The notes under the pieces: model-generated
Databases searched by the model: none
The model's input: only the letters and a program-made list of their open reading frames with translations
Told to the model about the DNA's origin: nothing
Assembly (NCBI GenBank): GCA_018434685.1
Contig: JAHDOV010000012.1
Coordinates: 1,590-65,589, forward strand
DNA length: 64,000 nt
Origin: Deltaproteobacteria bacterium
GTDB taxonomy: Bacteria > Desulfobacterota > Desulfomonilia > UBA1062
Direction of reading: 5' to 3'
Shown here: piece after piece, positions 21,422 through 35,895 of the stretch
Layout of the letters: every line of letters starts with the position of its first letter
Numbering within the stretch: the stretch's first letter is position 1
Translations under genes and position numbers: made by a program

Positions 21422-22372
21422 ATGAGATACTACGCGGATGAAGTCAACCTCCATGCCAGGATATATGCCATGCGGAGCCGTCTCCTCATGCTCAGGGACT
21501 ACACCGCGATCGTCAGGGACAACAATGCCTTTTCCGAAACCATAACCGGCGCAGATGAATACGCCCGGGCCAGGGAAACTGTCTTCACCGAACAGATCCA
21601 GGCCGTGATCCGCCTCGCCGAGGCAACACAGACCTATGCCCCGCTCTTTCTCGCCTTCCTCCGTCAGTACGAGGCCAACAACCTCAAGCTCCTCCTGGCC
21701 AGGGCATTCGGCAGGCAGTGCCTGGAACAGTGGTACGATATCGGTCACTACGCCACCCTCGACAGGGGGCTGCTCAAGAAAGAACCCGCCCTGGAGGAGA
21801 TCAGGTCCATGCTGGCCGGCACATACCTGGACGGCCTTCTCGACGATACTGCGAGCTACGAACGCCTCGAGATGCGTATCGACATCCGTGCGGCCAAAAA
21901 CCTGCATGCCTCTTCGGCTCCCTTCCTGCCCAGGTCACGCAACGACTTCCAGGAGATCATGCTCAGGCGGGTCGCGGTCCTCGCCGTGATCTGGCAGCGG
22001 AGGCTCAAGGAGAACTACCACTGGGATGACGAGCAGATACAGTCTCACCTTGAACGTCTCCCTGAGCTCTTCGACGGCTCCCCTGCGCCACAGGTGAAGA
22101 TCGTTCAGGAGGCAATGAACCGGCGTCTTGAACTGGAGAGGAAGAGCGGCGGACCATCGCCGGGCGCAGTGGATGTCGAGTACTATCTCGAGCAGTATTT
22201 CTACCGGTGGGTCTGTTCCATATTCCACAAGGATTTTCACTCGGTATACTGCGTGGTCGCCTATCTGTGGCTGCTGTTCTACCAGATAAAGAACCTGCTG
22301 CGCATCATCGACGGCAGGCACCTGGGCCTGTCGCCTGAAGCGATATTCGAAAGGATCGTATGTGAAGTGTGA
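21422..22372 (+). CDS. atpC: V/A-type ATPase subunit C (d)
   Basis: It is 316 aa and sits in the operon between the H-like and I subunits. Confidence 0.65.
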   Translation: MRYYADEVNLHARIYAMRSRLLMLRDYTAIVRDNNAFSETITGADEYARARETVFTEQIQAVIRLAEATQTYAPLFLAFLRQYEANNLKLLLARAFGRQCLEQWYDIGHYATLDRGLLKKEPALEEIRSMLAGTYLDGLLDDTASYERLEMRIDIRAAKNLHASSAPFLPRSRNDFQEIMLRRVAVLAVIWQRRLKENYHWDDEQIQSHLERLPELFDGSPAPQVKIVQEAMNRRLELERKSGGPSPGAVDVEYYLEQYFYRWVCSIFHKDFHSVYCVVAYLWLLFYQIKNLLRIIDGRHLGLSPEAIFERIVCEV

Positions 22373-22380
22373 GGCCTGCC

Positions 22381-24291
22381 ATGTTTGTGAAGTCGGATAT
22401 CAGGAGAGTCTCTGTCGTTGTTGAGAAGATCTACTACCGGGAGGTCTGCATCGCACTGGGAAGACAAGGGTTCATCCAGCTCTCCGGTTCACCGGACAGT
22501 ACGCCTGATACCTCCACGGTCACCGGGCTCAGGGACGAGGAGACACGGATCAGGGGACTCCTCTCAGGAATCGAATACATCCTCCATGCCTTCGGCATCG
22601 AACCCGGCAGCGCTGCCATACCCGAGAGGGTGCGCGACACCCCCCAGGACGAGGCCTTCGTCTCGGGGACAAAAAACACCATCGACCGTGCAGAGCGTAT
22701 CCGCTCAAAGATTCAGGAGGAATCGGCGGCCATCCGGGAGCATATATCCTGCCTCGAGATCGTGCATGAGATGGGCATCGATCCCGGTTCGATCAGGACG
22801 GCACGCCTGGTAAAGATGATCTTCGGGACCGTGGAAAACCTCGACTGGCAGGTACCGGCTCACGAGGGCTTCATGGTGGCCGGGGCGGGCAGGCATGTCA
22901 TAGGCGCGGCCCTTCCTCCGGATTTCGAAGCGATGACGAGGTTTCTCAAGGCATACGGCTTCACCGACAGGTCGGGGGACCTGGTCGAGGCATCCCCTGA
23001 AACCCTTGCACACCGTCTGGACACGCTCCGGCACCGGCAAGAGATCCTCGAGTCCTGCCTGGACCGCCTGAAGGATGACGCGGGGCAGGTCCTGCAAGAG
23101 CTGCACGGCTTCTACAGCGGCTACGAAGAGATCCTCCATGCCCTGAGGCTGTCGGCATTCTCATCCCGGGCCATGTTCCTGTCCGGATGGATAGACCTGG
23201 CCGACAAGCAGCGGCTCCTGAGCATCCTCAGGGAAATCTGCGCCGACAGGTTCATCGCCGTCGTCTCCGAGAAGAGAGAACCCGAGGCCCCGGTCCGCCT
23301 CATGAACCGGAAGCTGCTGAGGCCCTTCGAGCTCCTTGTGAAGACCATGGGCATGCCGGCCAACAGCGAGATAGACCCTACCCCGCTCACGGCACTCACC
23401 TTTGTTCTCATGTTCGGCCTCATGTTCGGCGACCTCGGCCAGGGGCTCGTCCTGGCCCTGATCGGCCTCGTGCTCGAGCGGATCGCGCACAACAGGGGTG
23501 CGTCATCCCAGGGCCTCGGACAGATCGGGAAGATCCTGATCGCCTGCGGCATCTCGGCAGCCCTGTGCGGCCTTCTCTACGGCAGCGTCTTCTCGAGCGA
23601 GCAGATCATACCTGCCCTCTGGTTCCACCCCATCGAGCACATCATGAGCCTGTTTGCCGCAACCATCCTGATCGGGGCACTGTTCATCGCCATCGGTCTT
23701 TGCGTCAACATCATCAACAGCCTCATGAACTCGCATTATACCGAGGCCTTCTTTGAAAAGAGGGGGCTCGTCGTACTCGTGCTCTATGCGGCAATCGTGC
23801 TCGGTGTCATACGGTATACTAGAACAGGAGAAGGACCTGCGCCGTGGGAGGCAGGCGTATTCATTGCCGTGCCCCTGCTCCTCTTTTCCTTGAGGGGTGT
23901 GCTCGGGCCGGCCCTGTTTTCGGAACCCGCACCGCAGAGCATAACCGAATACTGTATCGAGACGTGCGTGGAGATCCTGGAGACAGGGTTGAGCATGCTT
24001 TCAAACACCATCTCGTTCATCAGGGTGGGGGCCTTTGCGCTGTCTCACGCAGGATTGAGCATCGTGACCTACACCCTGGCCGGCATCGCCGACCCAGCGA
24101 TGCGCTCTCCGGGCGCCATCGCCATCATTATTGGCGGCAACATCTTCATTATCGGCTTCGAGGGCCTTGTCTGCTCGATCCAGTCCATGAGGCTCGAGTA
24201 CTACGAGTTCTTCAGCAAGTTCTTCAGGGGAGACGGGGTTGCCTTTACCCCTTTCATACTCAAGGGAAAAAGCGTTGGAGGTGCTCTATGA
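22381..24291 (+). CDS. atpI: V/A-type ATPase subunit I (a)
   Basis: A hydrophilic N-terminal half is followed by a multi-TM C-terminal half. A GTG at 22369, overlapping the upstream stop, is an alternative start. Confidence 0.8.
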   Translation: MFVKSDIRRVSVVVEKIYYREVCIALGRQGFIQLSGSPDSTPDTSTVTGLRDEETRIRGLLSGIEYILHAFGIEPGSAAIPERVRDTPQDEAFVSGTKNTIDRAERIRSKIQEESAAIREHISCLEIVHEMGIDPGSIRTARLVKMIFGTVENLDWQVPAHEGFMVAGAGRHVIGAALPPDFEAMTRFLKAYGFTDRSGDLVEASPETLAHRLDTLRHRQEILESCLDRLKDDAGQVLQELHGFYSGYEEILHALRLSAFSSRAMFLSGWIDLADKQRLLSILREICADRFIAVVSEKREPEAPVRLMNRKLLRPFELLVKTMGMPANSEIDPTPLTALTFVLMFGLMFGDLGQGLVLALIGLVLERIAHNRGASSQGLGQIGKILIACGISAALCGLLYGSVFSSEQIIPALWFHPIEHIMSLFAATILIGALFIAIGLCVNIINSLMNSHYTEAFFEKRGLVVLVLYAAIVLGVIRYTRTGEGPAPWEAGVFIAVPLLLFSLRGVLGPALFSEPAPQSITEYCIETCVEILETGLSMLSNTISFIRVGAFALSHAGLSIVTYTLAGIADPAMRSPGAIAIIIGGNIFIIGFEGLVCSIQSMRLEYYEFFSKFFRGDGVAFTPFILKGKSVGGAL

Positions 24292-24638
24292 CCAGGGATA
24301 ATCAGTCTTGGGCTCTTGCGGGTGTTCTCCTGCTCGCAGCAGTGATGTGCCTTTTTCCGGACGTGCTGCCTGCGGCGGCTCAGCAGGAGTCCCTCGGGAC
24401 AACCGCGAACAATCCGGGCAACAACTGGCTCGATATGGGATACATCGCTGCGGCCCTGGCCGTGGGACTAGCCTGTATCGCCAGTGCCTTCGCCGTTGCC
24501 CGTATCGGTTCGGCAGGCATTGGCGCCATGAGCGAGAAGCCGGAGCTCACGGGACGGGTCCTCATCTTCCTCGGCCTGGCCGAAGGGATCGCCATCTACG
24601 GCCTGATCATCGCGATCATGATCCTCAACAAGCTGTAG
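24288..24638 (+). CDS. atpK: V/A-type ATPase proteolipid subunit K (c)
   Basis: It has hydrophobic helices with the ion-binding Glu in GLAEGIAIYGL and overlaps the atpI stop (ATGA). Confidence 0.7.
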   Translation: MTRDNQSWALAGVLLLAAVMCLFPDVLPAAAQQESLGTTANNPGNNWLDMGYIAAALAVGLACIASAFAVARIGSAGIGAMSEKPELTGRVLIFLGLAEGIAIYGLIIAIMILNKL

Positions 24639-24640
24639 GC

Positions 24641-24946
24641 ATGAAGAAGATCTACATCATAGGCGACCTGCATACGGTGAGCGCCTGGCGTCTCGCCGGG
24701 GTGGAGGGCGTGGTCTCGGGCAAAAACAGGGCTCACTCCGACCTCGAAGAGACCATCGGCAAGGAGGATGCAGGTATCGTGATCATCACCAACGGGCTCG
24801 CCGAAGATCTCCGGGCGAGGATAACCGAGATAAACACGGGCAGCTCGAGCCCGGTAGTCATCGAGATACCGGGCATCGACGATCCGCACGGGTTTGGCAG
24901 ATCGGCCGTGGGCTACATAGCAGAGGCCCTCGGCATCGCCCTGTGA
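24641..24946 (+). CDS. atpF: V/A-type ATPase subunit F
   Basis: The translation begins MKKIYIIGDLHTVSAWRLAGVEGV. Confidence 0.8.
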   Translation: MKKIYIIGDLHTVSAWRLAGVEGVVSGKNRAHSDLEETIGKEDAGIVIITNGLAEDLRARITEINTGSSSPVVIEIPGIDDPHGFGRSAVGYIAEALGIAL

Positions 24947-24961
24947 GGAGAGGGACCGGTC

Positions 24962-25564
24962 ATGGAAACAACGCCACTGGAAACCTCCATCAGGGAAGAG
25001 TCCGAGCGCACGATACGGGCCATCAGGGAACACGAGGCCGCCGAGATCAGGCAACTCGACGAGGCCTGCACGCTCGAGATCGAAGGTTACCGGGGCAGAA
25101 CCGGGGACGAAATACAGGCGAGGATCGATCAGGAACTGAAAAGAATCGCCAGCAGGGGCATCCTCGAGCGCAGGAAGCTCATGCTGCGCACCATCGAGGA
25201 GTTCATCACCCGCACGGTGGAAAAGGCAGTGGAGGGCATGAGGTCGGATCCGCTCTACAAAGAGTTTCTCCTGCAGAGCATATGTGCTGCCACACTCGAG
25301 ATCCAGTCCGGGGCGGAGGTGCATCTCAAGGAGCAGGACCGGATCTTTGATGACGAGATCATGGCTGCCCTTAAGGACGCAGGCGTCCACAGGGATATCG
25401 TCATCAGGGATGACAGCACGATACAATGGGGCGGCTGCCTCGTCAGAGACGAAGCAGGGGGACGTATCTTCAACGGCACCATCGAGAGAATCTACTACCG
25501 AAAATCAGCGATGATACGCCGGGAGGTCCTGAGAATCCTCAAAGACAAGGGGTTCACTCTCTAG
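24962..25564 (+). CDS. atpE: V/A-type ATPase subunit E
   Basis: A 200-aa helical, charged protein in the operon's E position. Confidence 0.75.
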   Translation: METTPLETSIREESERTIRAIREHEAAEIRQLDEACTLEIEGYRGRTGDEIQARIDQELKRIASRGILERRKLMLRTIEEFITRTVEKAVEGMRSDPLYKEFLLQSICAATLEIQSGAEVHLKEQDRIFDDEIMAALKDAGVHRDIVIRDDSTIQWGGCLVRDEAGGRIFNGTIERIYYRKSAMIRREVLRILKDKGFTL

Positions 25565-25575
25565 AGAACAGGGGG

Positions 25576-27354
25576 ATGCAGGTGGAAGACATGGTGACGG
25601 GAAAGGTGATCTCTGTCAACGGCCCGATCGTGAAGGCGTCGGGGCTGGCGAGAATAAAGATGTTCGACATCGCCGAGGTTGGCCCCCACAGGCTCATCGG
25701 GGAGGTCATCCGCCTTGCCGGGGGCGTGACCGTCATCCAGGTGTACGAGGACAACACCGGCCTGAAGCCGGGCGACGAGGTGGTTTCCTCGTGCAGGCCG
25801 CTGTCGGTCCTGCTGGGTCCGGGGCTCATCGCGAACATATACGACGGCATACAGCGCCCGCTCGTGGGTATCTCCGAGGTATGCGGCAGCTATATAGAAA
25901 AGGGGATCAAGCTGCCCGCGCTCGACATGGAGAAGCGCTGGGCATTCAGTCCGCTCGTAACGGCCGGGGCCGCACTGAGAGGGGGTTGCGTGCTGGGAGA
26001 GATCCGGGAGAGTCCCCTGGTCGTGCACCGGGTCCTCCTGCCTCCCGGGGTATCCGGCACGCTCACGGGCATTGCCGCCGCCGGAGAGTACACCATTGAC
26101 GAAGAGATCTACACCCTCGATACCGCTACGGGCACCTACACGGGGAAACTCGCCGGGTACTGGCCGGTGAGGAGCCCGCGGCCGTTCAGGCTCAAGAAGA
26201 AACCCTTCATCCCGCTCATGACCGGTCAGCGGGTCATCGACACGTTTTTCCCCATAGCCAGGGGCGGTACCGCAGCAATACCCGGGGGGTTCGGAACGGG
26301 CAAGACCATGACCCAGCATGCCCTGGCCAAGTGGTGCAACGCGGACATCATCGTGTACATCGGCTGCGGCGAACGGGGCAACGAGATGACCGATGTCCTC
26401 ACTGAATTCCCGAATCTCATCGATGAACGAAACGGAAGGCCGCTCATCGAACGGACGGTCATGATCGCGAACACCTCGAACATGCCGGTGCCTGCCAGGG
26501 AGGTAAGCATCTACACCGGGGTGACCATCGCTGAATTCTATCGCGACATGGGTTACAGCGTCGCGGTGATGGCCGACTCCACCTCGCGGTGGGCCGAGGC
26601 CCTCAGGGAGCTCTCCAGCAGGCTCGGAGACATGCCTGCGGAGGAGGGATTCCCACCCTACCTGGCAACCCGCCTCGCCGAGTTCTACGAGCGGGCCGGC
26701 CTGGTGGAAACACTCTCGGGCCATGACGGCGACATCACCATCATCGGTGCGGTCTCCCCCCCGGGCGGCGACTTCTCGGAGCCGGTCACCCAGCACACGT
26801 CACGATTCGTGAGGTGCTTCTGGGCGCTCGACAAGATCCTGGCCGATGCCCGGCACTATCCCTCGATCAGCTGGACCGACAGCTACACCGAATACCTCCA
26901 CGACATCGAGGCCTGGTGGAGAACCCTCGACAGCCAGTGGCTTTCACTCAGGAACGAGGTGATGAACATCCTGCTTGACGACCACAGGCTCCAGCAGCTG
27001 GTAAAGCTCGTGGGCACCGATGCCCTGCCGCAGACCCAGCAGTTTGTCCTCTTTGCAGCCGAGATGATCAAGAACGCCTTCCTCCAGCAGAATTCCTTCG
27101 ATCCCATTGACAAATACTGCAGCCCGGAGAAGCAGCTCAAGCTCCTCAAGACGTTCCTGACCCTCTACCGAAAGGGTTCGCAGCTCGTGCATGCAGGCGT
27201 TTCTCTAAAGGAGATCAAGGCCCTCGATGTGATGTCCGAACTGGTGAGGCTCAAATCCGAGGTCCCGAACCAGGACACCGCCAGGATCGATGAGTATGGA
27301 AAGAGGCTTGCGACAGAGCTCGATTCTCTCAAAGAGCTCTTGACAGGGGTATAG
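25576..27354 (+). CDS. atpA: V/A-type ATPase catalytic subunit A
   Basis: It carries the Walker A loop GGFGTGKT and overall A-subunit architecture. Confidence 0.9.
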
Positions 27355-27356
27355 CC

Positions 27357-28760
27357 ATGGCAGTCGAGATAGAGTACACATGCCTTTCCGAGATCTCCGG
27401 ACCGCTCATCTTCGTCAGGGGAGTCAGGGGTGTCGGGTTCGGGGAGATCGTGGAGATCCGCGACGGATCATCCGCCGTACGGACAGGGCAGACGCTCGAG
27501 GTCGACGAAGACAGCGCCGTGGTGCAGGTCTTCGAAGGAACGAGCGGGCTCTCGGTGGAGGGCATGCGGGTGACCTTCGTGGGAAGGCCGCTCGAGATCC
27601 CAGTGGACCGCGACATGCTCGGACGGGTCTTCGACGGCCTGGGAAGGCCCATCGATGGCGCCCCCCAGGTGATCACGGACAACCTGAAGGACATCAACGG
27701 CCTGCCGGTGAATCCCTGGAGCAGGGAATACCCGAGGGACTTCATACAGACCGGGATTTCGGCCATCGACGGCATGAACACCCTCATCCGCGGGCAGAAG
27801 CTCCCCATATTCTCGGCCAGCGGCATGCCGCACAACCTGATCGCCGCACAGATCGCCAGGCAGGCCATGATCCTGAGCGCAAAGGAAGAGTTCACCGTCA
27901 TCTTTGCAGCCATGGGGGTGAAGTTCGACATGGCCCGGTTTTTCATCGACTCGCTCGAGGAATCGGGCGTGCTCACGCACTCGGCCATATTCCTGAGCCT
28001 GGCAGATGCCCCGTCCATCGAGCGGCTCATCACGCCACGCGTGGCGCTCACGCTCGCCGAGCACCTCGCCTTTGACGAGGGCATGCATGTGCTCGTGATC
28101 CTCACCGACATGACGAACTACTGCGAGTCGCTCCGGGAGCTCTCCAGCTCGAGAGGGGAGATCCCTTCCCGGAAGGGCTACCCCGGCTACCTCTACAGCG
28201 ACCTCGCTTCCATCTACGAGCGGGCAGGCAGATTGAAGGGTCACCGCGGCTCTATCACCCAGATGCCCATACTCACCATGCCGAGCGACGACATCTCACA
28301 CCCGGTCCCGGACCTCACCGGCTACATAACCGAGGGACAGATTGTGCTGGAGAGAGAGCTCTTCAACAAGGGCATCTACCCTCCCATTGCCGGCCTGCCC
28401 TCGCTGTCGCGGCTCATGAAGGACGGCATCGGCGAGGGGCATACCCGCAAAGACCATGCCGAGGTAGCGGCCCAGCTCTTTGCCTCCTATGCCAAGGTCA
28501 AACGCATCCGCGCCCTCGAGGCCATCGTGGGAGAAGAGGAGCTTTCCTCTCTCGACAGGGTATACCTGAAGTTCGGAACAGCGTTCGAGGAGGAGTTCCT
28601 GAGCCAGGGGCCCGAGGAGAACCGGTCCATCGAGCAGACGCTCGACCTTGGATGGCGCATGCTCTCCCTGCTTCCCCAGGAAGAGCTCTATCGCATCTGT
28701 GCAGAAGACCTGCACAAGTTCTACATTCCTTCCAAGGAGCGGGGAGAATGCCAAAGATAG
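27357..28760 (+). CDS. atpB: V/A-type ATPase subunit B
   Basis: A 467-aa non-catalytic nucleotide-binding subunit. Confidence 0.9.
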
Positions 28761-29368
28761 AGCTGCCGCCCACCAAATCATCTCTGAGAAGGCTCAAAGA
28801 TGAACTCTCCTTCGCGTACGAGGGCTACGACCTGCTCAACCAGAAACGGGAGATCCTCGCCATCGAGATCGTCAAACACATCAGCGAGATCAAGCACATC
28901 GAGGCCGAGCTGGGCACCGCCCTCCAGGAGCTCTATGCCGCGTACCGTTCAGCTGCCGTGGACATGGGTGCAGACACCATCACCAGCAAGACCAGCTCCG
29001 AGAAGCGGGGCTATTTCCTCCACGTGGAATCCACCAGGCTCATGGGCCTGGTGCTCCCCCGGTTCAGGCTCACCTTCAAACGGCCCCGGATCGCCTACCT
29101 TCATGATACGACCGCCTCCTACGACACGGCAAAGAGAAGAGCGCGAAAGGCGCTCGAGACCCTCGCCGAATATGCCACCATCACCAAGGCGATCATCATG
29201 CTCTCCAGGGAGCTCAAGAAGGTGCAGCGCCGGGTGAACGCGCTGGAGAAGATCTTCATCCCCCAGCACGAGGAGGCGAAGAAGTATATCGCAGACCGGC
29301 TCGAGGAGATGGAACGCGAAGAGGTCTTCGTGAAAAAGCTCATCCGGCAGCGCAAGTCAGGCAAGTAG
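28748..29368 (+). CDS. atpD: V/A-type ATPase subunit D
   Basis: The translation begins [30 protein letters not shown] and it overlaps the end of atpB. Confidence 0.85.
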
Positions 29369-29399
29369 GCCGACCGGGAAAATGCCGGGGGTGATGGCT

Positions 29400-29798
29400 G
29401 ATTCTGTCTGCCAAACAGGCATGGCCCGTCGGCCGCAACGAAGCATGAAACAGTGTCCGGTTTACTGAATATACCTGCCTGAATTTCTAGAGGGGTTTTA
29501 TTCTGTCTTCTGAATTCTGTCCGCGGCGGATGGATTCTGATTTCTGTCTTCTGTCTTCTGGCTTCTTTTCTCTGTCTCATCATCTTTTTCTAACAGTCTA
29601 AACGCCTACAGTCTAAAAGACTAAGACCTCAGTTTGTCTCCAGGCTTCTATCCTCATATAAACACTCAGCGCTACACAACTTTAACATTTCATTTAACAT
29701 ACTTTCACAGCAATCTGTGTCTCCATTTGTTACTACCCTGATCAGTCGACAGAATTGTTTTCTGTTCACAATCAAAGTCGAAAACAGGGAGAGTTGCC
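29400..29798 (+). promoter_or_regulatory. AT-rich ~400-nt non-coding leader with short direct repeats upstream of the radical SAM operon
   Basis: GC drops sharply here. Repeats are ttctgtcttctg (several copies) and cagtctaaa (twice). An agggagag RBS lies at its 3' end. Confidence 0.4.
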
Positions 29799-31502
29799 AT
29801 GAACAACAACAGGGTTCTTTTCTCATCGGTGTTCGGACCATACGGAATCAAGGATGAATGGGGTGAGGAACTCGGCATGCAGATGGAGCTCCTGAACAAT
29901 CAGGTCACGCGCCAGCAGGGGGTTCACTCACCGCGACAGTCATATCTCTCGTTTGCGCTCTACCTCCTGGCAGAAAATATCTCTGTTCCAAGCACGGTGC
30001 TCGATTTTCCCGGATGGGACGAATTTGTCAGCGAGCTCGATCACGGCTACACGCATGTAGCCATTTCCTTCATTGTGCCCAATGTGCTCAAGGTCAAGAG
30101 AATGGCTGAGTACATCAGGCTGCATTATCCTGAGGTGAAGATTCTCCTTGGCGGGTACGGCACCATCATTCCCGATCTTGAAAGGCTGGTTCCCCACGAT
30201 GCATGCTGCAGGGGTGAAGGGGTGAAATGGATCAGGAATTACTTCGGCGATGACCCGGAGGCGCCGATCGTGCATCCTGTCCTGAAAAATCCTGTCTACA
30301 ACTATATATACGGAATGCCCTCGACACCTCGCGGTTCGGTCATTTTCCCGGGGGTCGGCTGTGAGAACGGCTGCAGATTCTGCATTACCTCGCACATGTT
30401 CAAGAAGGAGCACATCCCCCTGCTGAAGGGAGGCCGCGAAATGTTCGATGTCTGCCAGAGGGCCCAAAGGGAACTGGGGGCACGAAACTTCATGGTGCTC
30501 GACGAGAATTTCCTCAAACACGACAAACGGGCCAGAGAGCTTCTCGATGAAATGACAACCGCCATCAGGCCTTATACCTTTGTGACGTTTTCCTCTGCGG
30601 AAAACATCCGCCGGGTCGGGACCGACTTTCTGGTCAGGGCAGGCATCACCCGCCTATGGGTAGGGGTCGAATCAAAGCTAAATCTCCATGACAAGACAAA
30701 GGGGATCGACCTGAAGGAGCTCTTCAGGGAACTGAGGTCAAAGGGAATAATCGTGCTGGCCTCAACAATCCTTTTCCATGATCATCATGACAGGGACACG
30801 TTAAAAGAAGAGATCGACTGGGTTATCGATCTTGACACGGACCTCGTGCAGTTCATGAACTATCATCCCTGGCCCGGCACTCCGCTCTACGAAGACCTTC
30901 AGCGAGAACACCGCCTGAAAAAGGTACCCTACCGCCACCAGCATGGGGCTGCCGAGCTCAGTTTCATACATCCCAATTTTCAAAGACCCGAAGATCATGA
31001 GAACCATCTCAGGCAGGCCTTCCGGCGCAATTACGAGAGGAAAGGCCCCTCCATCGTCAATATGGCGAAGACGGCATTGTCCGGTTATCTGCAGGCGGTT
31101 ACAGATTATGACCAGAGGCAGGCCCAGGGCATGACATGGAATGCGGAGCTGATGCGGTATGAAAAAACCGGCAGGCATGATATAGACCTGTACATGCTGG
31201 AGAGAATAGAGGTGATGAAGAATGAGGCCATGCGCTATTTCCCCTCGCTGCTGCCTGCCCTGGTGTTCGGTCCCAACTTAAGGTCACGCCTGAAGGTCCT
31301 CTCGGTGATGAGGCTCTACCGCAAGGCCATGGGAGGGGTGAAGGTCACGGATATCCTCAAGTCCCTGGTGCTGTCCGCAAGCGGCTTTGTTGAGTTCGGC
31401 CGGATCCTCTTCAACCGGGCACAGGGACACGAAGGGATCATCCGCCAGCCCCGGGTTCACCGGGTGGAGTACCCGGGAAACAGGTCCCTGGTGAAGACAT
31501 GA
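29799..31502 (+). CDS. B12-binding domain radical SAM protein
   Basis: An N-terminal cobalamin-binding-like domain is followed by a radical SAM CxxxCxxC motif (GCENGCRFC). Confidence 0.85.
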   Translation: MNNNRVLFSSVFGPYGIKDEWGEELGMQMELLNNQVTRQQGVHSPRQSYLSFALYLLAENISVPSTVLDFPGWDEFVSELDHGYTHVAISFIVPNVLKVKRMAEYIRLHYPEVKILLGGYGTIIPDLERLVPHDACCRGEGVKWIRNYFGDDPEAPIVHPVLKNPVYNYIYGMPSTPRGSVIFPGVGCENGCRFCITSHMFKKEHIPLLKGGREMFDVCQRAQRELGARNFMVLDENFLKHDKRARELLDEMTTAIRPYTFVTFSSAENIRRVGTDFLVRAGITRLWVGVESKLNLHDKTKGIDLKELFRELRSKGIIVLASTILFHDHHDRDTLKEEIDWVIDLDTDLVQFMNYHPWPGTPLYEDLQREHRLKKVPYRHQHGAAELSFIHPNFQRPEDHENHLRQAFRRNYERKGPSIVNMAKTALSGYLQAVTDYDQRQAQGMTWNAELMRYEKTGRHDIDLYMLERIEVMKNEAMRYFPSLLPALVFGPNLRSRLKVLSVMRLYRKAMGGVKVTDILKSLVLSASGFVEFGRILFNRAQGHEGIIRQPRVHRVEYPGNRSLVKT

Positions 31503-32593
31503 CGAACAGGAATGATCTTGTTTTCCTTGCAGGCCGCACTGCGTTTGAGCGGATTCAGGATGCAGGCCTTCAGCCCGAGGATGTCGCCGTGGTGGCAGGT
31601 GCGTCCGGTGCCGCCAAGTGGCTGATCATCTCCGAACTGGACAAGGCCATCTTCAGCCAGTGGTTGAAGGATCGAAAAACCCCTCTGCCGCTCTTCGGCA
31701 CCTCGATCGGTTCATGGAAGCTTGCCGCGGCCGCACAGGATGATCCCTCCTCTGCGTTTGAGACCCTGGCGCAGTCCTATATTCACCAGCACTACGAGGG
31801 AAAAGTCACTCCTAAGCAGGTAACGGCCGAAGGTTGGCGGATACTGGACTCCTACCTTCCCCAGGAGAAAGTGAAGGAAATCCTCTCCCATCCCGTGATG
31901 AGGTTCAACCTCTGCGCAGTGAGGTGCAAGGGATTGACTGCCACGAGGAAGATCTTCCTGCAGCTTCTCGCACTGGGTATATCATCTCTTGCCAACCGGA
32001 TCAGCCCGAGACTGCTCTCGCTGCTCTTTGAACGAACCCTCTTCCATGATTCCCGCGACCCCTCCTCGTTGTTTGACAAAAGTGAGTTTCCCCTGCAGAG
32101 GGTGCCCCTGGATGAAAAGAATTTCCGCCGTGCCTTGATGGCCTCCGGGTCCATTCCCCTGGCCATGGAAGGGGTAACGGGCATCCCGGGTGCCCATGAA
32201 GGTGTCTATCGGGACGGCGGGATCCTCGACTACCATCCTTCATCGTTCTATCCTGGTGAGGGAACAGGCATCGTGCTCTATCCGCATTTTTACAGCAGGC
32301 TGATTCCAGGCTGGTTCGACAAGTCCCTTCCCTGGCGCAGCCCCAGGCCGGAACACCTCAAGAACATGCTCCTCCTGGCCCCATCTCAGGAATTCATCTC
32401 CCGTCTTCCGTATGGAAGCATCCCTGACAGGAAGGATTTCGTGCGCTTTCACGGGCGTGATGAAGAGCGTATCGCTTTCTGGAATGAGGCGAGGCGAGAA
32501 GGGGAAAGACTGGCGGATGACTTTATGGAAAGTGTCCTGAGCGGATCGATCCGCACGAAGGTTATGCCGTTGGAAGAGCAATGGCCACAATAG
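31499..32593 (+). CDS. Patatin-like phospholipase family protein
   Basis: It has the GxSxG motif (GTSIGSW) and a catalytic DGG (YRDGGILD). It overlaps the radical SAM gene stop (ATGA). Confidence 0.8.
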   Translation: MTNRNDLVFLAGRTAFERIQDAGLQPEDVAVVAGASGAAKWLIISELDKAIFSQWLKDRKTPLPLFGTSIGSWKLAAAAQDDPSSAFETLAQSYIHQHYEGKVTPKQVTAEGWRILDSYLPQEKVKEILSHPVMRFNLCAVRCKGLTATRKIFLQLLALGISSLANRISPRLLSLLFERTLFHDSRDPSSLFDKSEFPLQRVPLDEKNFRRALMASGSIPLAMEGVTGIPGAHEGVYRDGGILDYHPSSFYPGEGTGIVLYPHFYSRLIPGWFDKSLPWRSPRPEHLKNMLLLAPSQEFISRLPYGSIPDRKDFVRFHGRDEERIAFWNEARREGERLADDFMESVLSGSIRTKVMPLEEQWPQ

Positions 32594-35433: not shown

Positions 35434-35895
35434 TTAATAGACGGATTTCATCCACCCTGTTTGCTTGTCAATCATGAGTTTATCTACCAGCGAACCCTCT
35501 TTCGTGACGATTTCCGCTTCAAAATATTTCTCACTATCCGTTAATTTTCCACCCTTCAGGTTGGGATTACCTAATGTGGTAAGATAATTCTCGAACAGCA
35601 CTTTTGCCTGATCCATCGTTATGGGTTGTCCGGAACGGTTGTAACTGCGACAGCCGTAGCCTGAACCGGAACCCATCATGCTCCCGGGTCCATACCCCTG
35701 TCCATATCCCATCATGCCACCATGTCCTTGCCCCATCATGCCCGGCCCCATGCCATATTGACCGGCCCACGGGCAGAACCAGCCGGAATCCTGATCAGAT
35801 GAAGGGTCACTCTCATCATCGGCTAAACAGATCTGGACGACACCAAGCGCCAGGGTAACCAAGAGAACCAGACCAACCATTTTTGTTGTCTTCAT
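35434..35895 (-). CDS. Secreted Met/Gly-rich protein with a C-terminal PepSY-like domain
   Basis: It has a signal peptide and a low-complexity GMGPGMMGQGHGGMMGYGQGYGPGSMMGSGSGYG region. The C-terminus is PepSY-like: GGKLTDSEKYFEAEIVTKEGSLVDKLMIDKQTGWM. Confidence 0.6.
   Translation of the reverse strand: MKTTKMVGLVLLVTLALGVVQICLADDESDPSSDQDSGWFCPWAGQYGMGPGMMGQGHGGMMGYGQGYGPGSMMGSGSGYGCRSYNRSGQPITMDQAKVLFENYLTTLGNPNLKGGKLTDSEKYFEAEIVTKEGSLVDKLMIDKQTGWMKSVY

Follow-up and report, generated by a model that had tools for sequence, protein, structure and literature searches.

A class B radical SAM gene overlapping a patatin-like acyl hydrolase gene: a recurrent, facultative pairing with a possible role in lipid-chain modification

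Class B radical S-adenosylmethionine (SAM) enzymes, in which a Rossmann-like B12-type domain precedes the radical SAM core, perform some of the hardest oxygen-free C-H chemistry. HpnJ, HpnR, the radical SAM protein of the ladderane cluster and the glycerol dialkyl glycerol tetraether (GDGT) ring synthases GrsA/GrsB act on unactivated carbons of lipid chains, and Mss and Tes are radical SAM enzymes acting on lipid tails in anaerobes. Only a few lipid-modifying class B enzymes are known, with GrsA/GrsB sharing the class B architecture (review PMC13459092). Within a 64,000 nucleotide (nt) stretch of contig JAHDOV010000012.1 from a Deltaproteobacteria bacterium (the window), a gene for a radical SAM protein overlaps a gene for a patatin-like protein at 29799-32593 on the + strand. 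The original prediction read this pair as a B12-binding radical SAM enzyme translationally coupled to a patatin-like phospholipase and together carrying out an uncharacterised lipid-modification or remodelling step. Analysis of homologues, structural models and gene neighbourhoods argues for a real but facultative functional link between the two genes, and a two-gene operon in which a radical SAM enzyme acts on a hydrophobic chain with an accessory acyl hydrolase is put forward here tentatively.

Both open reading frames (ORFs) are real genes, since each encoded protein has more than 1500 homologues. Their positions and the ATGA overlap between them were confirmed from the sequence (Table 1), the predicted motifs CENGCRFC, GTSIGS and DGG are present and their key residues are invariant in alignments of homologues. 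All Pfam matches fell below gathering cut-offs, comprising Radical_SAM (PF04055; 25.9 bits, E=1.3e-5) and B12-binding (PF02310; 21.4 bits, E=2.3e-4) for the first protein and Patatin (PF01734; 20.7 bits against a cut-off of 27.7) for the second, and domain calls for both proteins were therefore drawn mainly from structure. AlphaFold models and Foldseek comparisons bore out the domain assignments originally made, and PF02310 is also among the precomputed Pfam matches of many homologues of the radical SAM protein.

In the radical SAM protein the three cysteines expected to bind the [4Fe-4S] cluster lie within the sequence GVGCENGCRFC and are also invariant in a separate alignment of 27 homologues. 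Beyond these, only C137 and C219 are conserved in the 75-sequence alignment, and the family thus carries no SPASM- or Tes-like auxiliary-cluster motif. The model, built with the 27 homologues as input (predicted local distance difference test score, pLDDT, 82.5), consists of an N-terminal Rossmann-like domain, a partial TIM barrel and a helical C-terminal domain, with the modelled barrel superposing on many radical SAM structures. The cysteine motif and modelled barrel together place the protein in the radical SAM superfamily, and the Rossmann-like B12-type domain modelled ahead of the core indicates class B architecture. When the model was compared with the PDB by Foldseek, the top matches were CysS, TsrM, TokK and MgmA (E 1e-9 to 1e-11), with AprD4 likewise among the structural neighbours (E=4e-10). 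All five have the three-part architecture of the window protein, but identity is only 14-16% and none was found in the PDB by the family profile, which detected no radical SAM chain at E<=1. The family differs from these class B enzymes in having its own C-terminal domain and a 40-residue invariant insertion after the first strand. This insertion has the pattern GPYG...LNNQ.TR.QG.HSPRQSY.SF, is partly retained in paralogues of 29-31% identity and is poorly placed by the model (pLDDT <50 for residues 14-48). Distant paralogues have other C-terminal domains, most of them matching only profile positions of approximately 1-435.

Conservation in the patatin-like protein was read from an alignment of 28 homologues. 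Its model (pLDDT 92.3) matched CapV, PlpD, CapE, cPLA2 and patatin in Foldseek, with a probability of 1.0 for CapV, PlpD, CapE and cPLA2 and TM-scores of 0.4-0.5. As in these proteins and ExoU, the modelled fold is accompanied by a Gly-rich oxyanion motif, a GxSxG serine and a DG[AG] aspartate (here DGG), and on this basis the protein is patatin-like, with a predicted lipid acyl hydrolase activity. It differs from known patatins in its sub-threshold Pfam score, in the modest TM-scores and in approximately 110 extra C-terminal residues. No signal peptide is evident and no NCBIfam model matched.

Table 1. Features of the radical SAM-patatin locus (positions in the window)
Feature	Position	Strand	Basis or remark
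Leader, non-coding and presumed promoter region, 430 nt	29369..29798	+	Between V-type ATPase operon and radical SAM gene
Shine-Dalgarno-like GGGAGAG	29787-29793	+	5 nt upstream of radical SAM ATG
Radical SAM protein, 567 amino acids, class B (B12-type) architecture	29799..31502	+	ORF, family alignment, Pfam, model
Residues 13-52, family-specific near-invariant insertion	29835..29954	+	Alignment; after first strand of Rossmann-like domain
CxxxCxxC (C188, C192, C195), radical SAM [4Fe-4S] cluster motif	30360..30383	+	100% conserved, 75 sequences
Residues 397-541, all-helical C-terminal domain of core family	30987..31421	+	Secondary structure of model
ATGA start/stop overlap	31499..31502	+	Radical SAM TGA 31500-31502, patatin ATG 31499-31501; translational coupling
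Divergent patatin-like acyl hydrolase, 364 amino acids	31499..32593	+	ORF, Pfam, alignment, model, Foldseek
Gly-rich oxyanion-hole motif G34-A-S-G37-A-A-K40	31598..31618	+	A35, G37, K40 invariant; G34 conserved
Nucleophile elbow G-T-S69-I-G (LFGTSIGSW)	31697..31711	+	G67, S69 invariant
D239-G-G (YRDGGILDY), catalytic Asp of Ser-Asp dyad	32213..32221	+	R238, D239, G240, G241 invariant

Comparison with named families set the radical SAM protein apart from each of them. The best NCBIfam match was HpnJ (46 bits against a cut-off of 578), followed by BchE (42 against 481), PhpK (28 against 600) and the ladderane radical SAM protein (22 against 360), whilst HpnR (cut-off 650) gave no match. Scores for the lipid enzymes are thus approximately ten-fold under the equivalog cut-offs, the relatives of the window protein likewise score far below them, and membership in the named NCBIfam radical SAM equivalogs was rejected. 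No family member has an informative name and no hopanoid, ladderane or GDGT genes were found near the pair. The window protein therefore falls in no characterised clade, lipid-related or otherwise, among those covered by the profile and structure searches. The invariant insertion and own C-terminal domain mark a distinct, uncharacterised family.

More than 1500 matches at E<=1e-5 show the family to be large, and a profile search of 1.84 billion representative proteins returned 346 clusters (50% identity) at E<=1e-30. Members are approximately 50% identical across phyla, and come almost all from uncultured genomes of Desulfobacterota/Syntrophales-like, Spirochaetota/Leptospirales, Hydrogenedentota, Aminicenantes, Myxococcota, Nitrospirales, Elusimicrobia and Kiritimatiellia lineages, which are generally regarded as anaerobic. 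Archaeal members among 80 loci were limited to three sequences from Lokiarchaeia (Candidatus Lokiarchaeum ossiferum and Promethearchaeum; L058, L059 and L060:9998-11947), 49% identical to bacterial proteins, a pattern suggestive of passage of the gene from bacteria into Asgard archaea. Hosts are thus overwhelmingly bacterial. A sister clade in Bacillota, of approximately 38% identity, is 65-69% identical to a very abundant protein group from metagenome-assembled genomes of Acidobacteria. In the latter group the gene lies between a phoH-ybeY-corC cluster and a DEAD-box helicase gene (L095:5105-11032, also L096 and L097), a housekeeping-type context unlike that of the window.

To what extent the pairing is conserved was examined at approximately 86 distinct loci with a radical SAM family member, each searched by tblastn and with hidden Markov models (HMMs) for both types of patatin described below, and with all neighbouring ORFs clustered. 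Eight of approximately 87 distinct genomes had the pair. All eight belong to a single branch of the family, and two patatin types are involved. Thus the pairing is not generally conserved, although it recurs in one branch. The window-type patatin adjoins the radical SAM gene in three lineages only, namely the window, its closest relatives (L006 and L098-L101; approximately 89% identity), in which the flanks around the pair are otherwise all different, and a locus of 73% identity (L094) in which the patatin gene is located upstream at a distance of 77 nt. The second type is a canonical Pfam patatin of approximately 284 amino acids, encoded directly downstream of the radical SAM gene in five Spirochaetota/Leptospirales genomes (approximately 63% identity) with gaps of -4, -4, -4, +2 and +47 nt, the 4-nt overlap being that of L012, L015 and L056. 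Between the window patatin and the second type no similarity was detectable by BLAST. In a neighbour-joining tree the patatin-linked radical SAM genes all fall in one major branch, where the five Spirochaetota members form one clade, sister to the part in which window-type cases are interspersed with unlinked ones. A metagenome scan with a single protein yielded three loci, two of them too short to inform.

Patatin was the commonest Pfam family among co-directional neighbours within 150 nt (7 of 36, with TetR next at 5) and was not among the families matching at least two of 131 control ORFs located two or three genes away. By Fisher's test p is 0.014 assuming no patatin among the controls, and 0.06 assuming a single one. 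More weight attaches to a qualitative argument, namely that two dissimilar patatin types are found at one and the same position, with a recurring overlap and in both gene orders. Such recurrence within one branch, with two dissimilar subfamilies and both orders, argues for a real, facultative functional link; the pair itself is real, and the two genes are probably linked in function in the window's lineage.

Other neighbours of the radical SAM gene were also recorded. A TetR-family gene lies 14-38 nt upstream on the same strand in Hydrogenedentota and Nitrospirales (L019, L023, L025, L066 and L067), L002 and L048 have upstream genes for acyl-CoA ligases, and genes for a PlsC-type acyltransferase, a 4HBT thioesterase and an enoyl-CoA hydratase are found near L093. 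L008 is adjoined by genes for an activase and an HGD-D protein, and in three Spirochaetota loci a gene for a thiamine pyrophosphate (TPP)-dependent enzyme follows the patatin gene. At L081:2212-6636, in the Bacillota sister clade, a 1474 amino acid protein with two BcrAD_BadFG domains and DUF2229 is encoded 68 nt downstream on the same strand, which is the architecture of the PlsA/Ger ether-lipid enzymes (PMC13159169). Beyond patatin and TetR, neighbour clusters occurred in few loci and no conserved third gene was found across the family. Two fused paralogues (P0443 and P0475) keep the N-terminal motif and the core at 29-31% identity (E=2e-50 to 4e-61). P0443 bears a C-terminal SCP2 lipid-binding domain, and P0475 a C-terminal haloalkane-dehalogenase-like alpha/beta hydrolase (164 bits to NF002938) with HGNPTWSYLYR and QDWGG motifs. 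Each of these lipid- or acyl-related neighbours and fusions is infrequent, and together they point to alkyl or acyl substrates over proteins or nucleic acids.

A scheme can be drawn from these data in which a cytoplasmic class B radical SAM enzyme with a single [4Fe-4S] cluster would generate a 5'-deoxyadenosyl radical, and this would attack an unactivated carbon in a hydrophobic, lipid-like chain (acyl or alkyl) by taking away a hydrogen. For this architecture, with cobalamin bound, the default would be methyl transfer or a C-C reaction assisted by the cofactor, other C-H chemistry also being possible. The ATGA overlap would lead to synthesis of the patatin-like hydrolase in fixed ratio to the radical SAM enzyme, and its Ser69/Asp239 dyad may act ahead of the radical chemistry, freeing the chain from a glycerolipid ester, or later, by removing or exchanging the chain. 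Our inferences here concern the nature of the substrate as a lipid, the use of cobalamin, the reaction type and which of the two enzymes acts first. Of the lipid-modification or remodelling step originally predicted, the recurrent patatin link stood within one branch and its generality did not, whilst the lipid role itself is plausible from context, namely the patatin, TetR, acyl-CoA ligase and PlsA/Ger-like neighbours and the fused paralogues. No paper on a radical SAM-patatin pairing was found in the literature.

A number of observations weigh against an enzyme pair dedicated to lipid chains. Approximately 90% of the radical SAM loci have no patatin neighbour, their contexts being mixed and mostly monocistronic, and the partner is absent even from relatives at 76-81% identity (L008, L010, L092, L093 and the contig with P0003). 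The window-type patatin family is in turn mostly unlinked to radical SAM genes, with three homologues of 49-64% identity found in unrelated contexts, and the patatin associations collapse to two or three independent events, so that the statistics above are modest. The nearest named HMMs include lipid enzymes (HpnJ, HpnR and the ladderane radical SAM protein), but the matches are weak and non-lipid enzymes (BchE and PhpK) score about as high, and such high conservation is compatible with a protein or RNA substrate as well. Cobalamin use is not readable from the sequence; to our knowledge no diagnostic sequence motif for cobalamin binding exists, and the structural neighbour AprD4 is known to function with this fold in the absence of cobalamin. 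Finally, the patatin gene may be dispensable in the closest relative, because it bears an in-frame TAG at the position of window Tyr251 (SSF*PVEK vs SSFYPGEG) and in one assembly (L098:9700-10802) a frameshift as well. The TAG was seen in the translations of L006:3258-4355, L099:7686-8786 and L101:4228-5328, gene calls at L100 show the same split into 250 and 76 amino acids, and the gene stays in frame and approximately 80% identical up to the normal stop; it represents either a recent pseudogene or amber read-through.

A serious alternative is that the two genes are not functionally coupled, patatin being adjacent through chance or operon shuffling, and that the radical SAM protein works alone as a housekeeping enzyme modifying a conserved non-lipid target (a protein, RNA or cofactor). 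Most loci are indeed solo with unrelated neighbours, often on the opposite strand. Cross-phylum conservation is extreme, the disordered invariant loop would be in keeping with macromolecule recognition, a housekeeping cluster surrounds the gene in the Acidobacteria sister family, the partner gene appears to be decaying in the nearest relative and the structural neighbours include the protein methylase MgmA. This explanation is nevertheless considered somewhat doubtful, as chance adjacency sits poorly with two mutually dissimilar patatin subfamilies at the same position in sister clades, with a recurring 4-nt overlap and both gene orders, with fusion of paralogues to SCP2 and to a haloalkane-dehalogenase-like hydrolase, and with the failure of Patatin to appear among families matching at least two control-position ORFs.

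Alternatively, the two genes may form a catabolic pair in which acyl chains of exogenous or necromass lipids are set free by the patatin, and an oxygen-independent activation or rearrangement by the radical SAM enzyme readies them for degradation by fatty-acid-oxidising anaerobes. Gene context in the Spirochaetota clade with a linked patatin leans that way rather than to membrane remodelling, with genes for an Fe-alcohol dehydrogenase and an acetyl-CoA hydrolase/transferase besides that for the TPP-dependent enzyme, and both the upstream acyl-CoA ligases and the TetR regulators directly upstream in Hydrogenedentota would fit such a role. Among the host taxa, Syntrophales-like bacteria, Leptospirales and Hydrogenedentota are known users of lipids and fatty acids. 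On the other side, no beta-oxidation genes are consistently linked, the window context is neutral, consisting of a V-type ATPase operon and small membrane proteins, and we know of no anaerobic lipid-catabolic radical SAM enzyme with such an architecture. A catabolic role is thus judged improbable.

Still less probable, and by a wide measure, is an Mss- or Tes-like synthase of membrane-spanning lipids that couples chains tail-to-tail, with the patatin trimming the products. The patchy taxonomic spread of Mss homologues, which includes Spirochaetes, deltaproteobacteria, candidate phyla, Elusimicrobia and Asgard archaea (PMC13159169), does resemble that of the present family. However, the solved Tes structure was missed both by the family profile in the PDB and by the top 50 structural matches, and the family conserves three cluster cysteines and two others, whereas Tes and Gms carry auxiliary clusters and an auxiliary-cluster mechanism has been postulated for Mss (PMC13459092). 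Furthermore, the radical SAM sister clade is abundant in metagenome-assembled genomes of Acidobacteria, whilst a reported screen of cultured Acidobacteria genomes found no homologue of Mss (PMC13159169). Identity with Tes/GDGT-MAS, for which auxiliary [4Fe-4S] and rubredoxin-type cysteine ligands would be expected, was rejected on the first two of these grounds. An anti-phage defence module with a patatin effector, like CapV/CapE of the cyclic oligonucleotide-based antiphage signalling system (CBASS), can be dismissed. CapV and CapE do give the patatin model its best structural matches, but neither the radical SAM protein nor either patatin type matched a PADLOC model, no cyclase, sensor or other signal-generating gene lies nearby and both families are chromosomal, widespread and mostly solo.

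A scan for promoters and terminators on the + strand found no convincing sigma-70 promoter and nothing above shuffled expectation. The co-directional ORFs directly 5' of the pair (22369-29368) were read from their translations alone as a V/A-type ATPase operon with I, K, E, A, B and D subunit-like ORFs, a flank not common to the pair's closest relative. On the 3' side lie two small membrane ORFs without informative domains and, on the opposite strand, a gene for an NDH-2-type oxidoreductase. Further downstream, at 35434-35895 on the - strand, the product of a 153 amino acid ORF begins with a hydrophobic N-terminal segment, contains a repeat region rich in Gly and Met (GMGPGMMGQGHGGMMGYGQGYGPGSMMG) and had no Pfam match. 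Between 46000 and 56000 the GC content falls to 35-41%, compared with 55-60% elsewhere in the window, over approximately ten mostly co-directional ORFs. One of nine ORFs scanned there had a Pfam match (8xMP membrane protein), pairwise comparison of the nine revealed no paralogy, and the stretch is possibly a horizontally acquired island.

A bolder extension of the lipid-chain proposal, which we regard as unlikely as it stands, would have the radical SAM protein found a new lipid-chain-modifying class B family, such as a C-methylase or cyclase that works mid-chain on acyl groups in ester linkage, widespread in anaerobic bacteria of more than ten phyla and transferred into Lokiarchaeia, with the patatin, SCP2 and dehalogenase-like modules as interchangeable substrate-handling accessories. 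If this were so, the family could be a source of some of the orphan branched or cyclised bacterial lipid biomarkers. Large, strongly conserved and without an assigned function, the radical SAM family taken in its entirety offers a better subject for experiments than the pair. Should the lipid role prove false, attention would shift to a conserved non-lipid target; should it prove true, bacterial lipid biochemistry would gain a new enzyme, with consequences for the reading of sedimentary lipid biomarkers.

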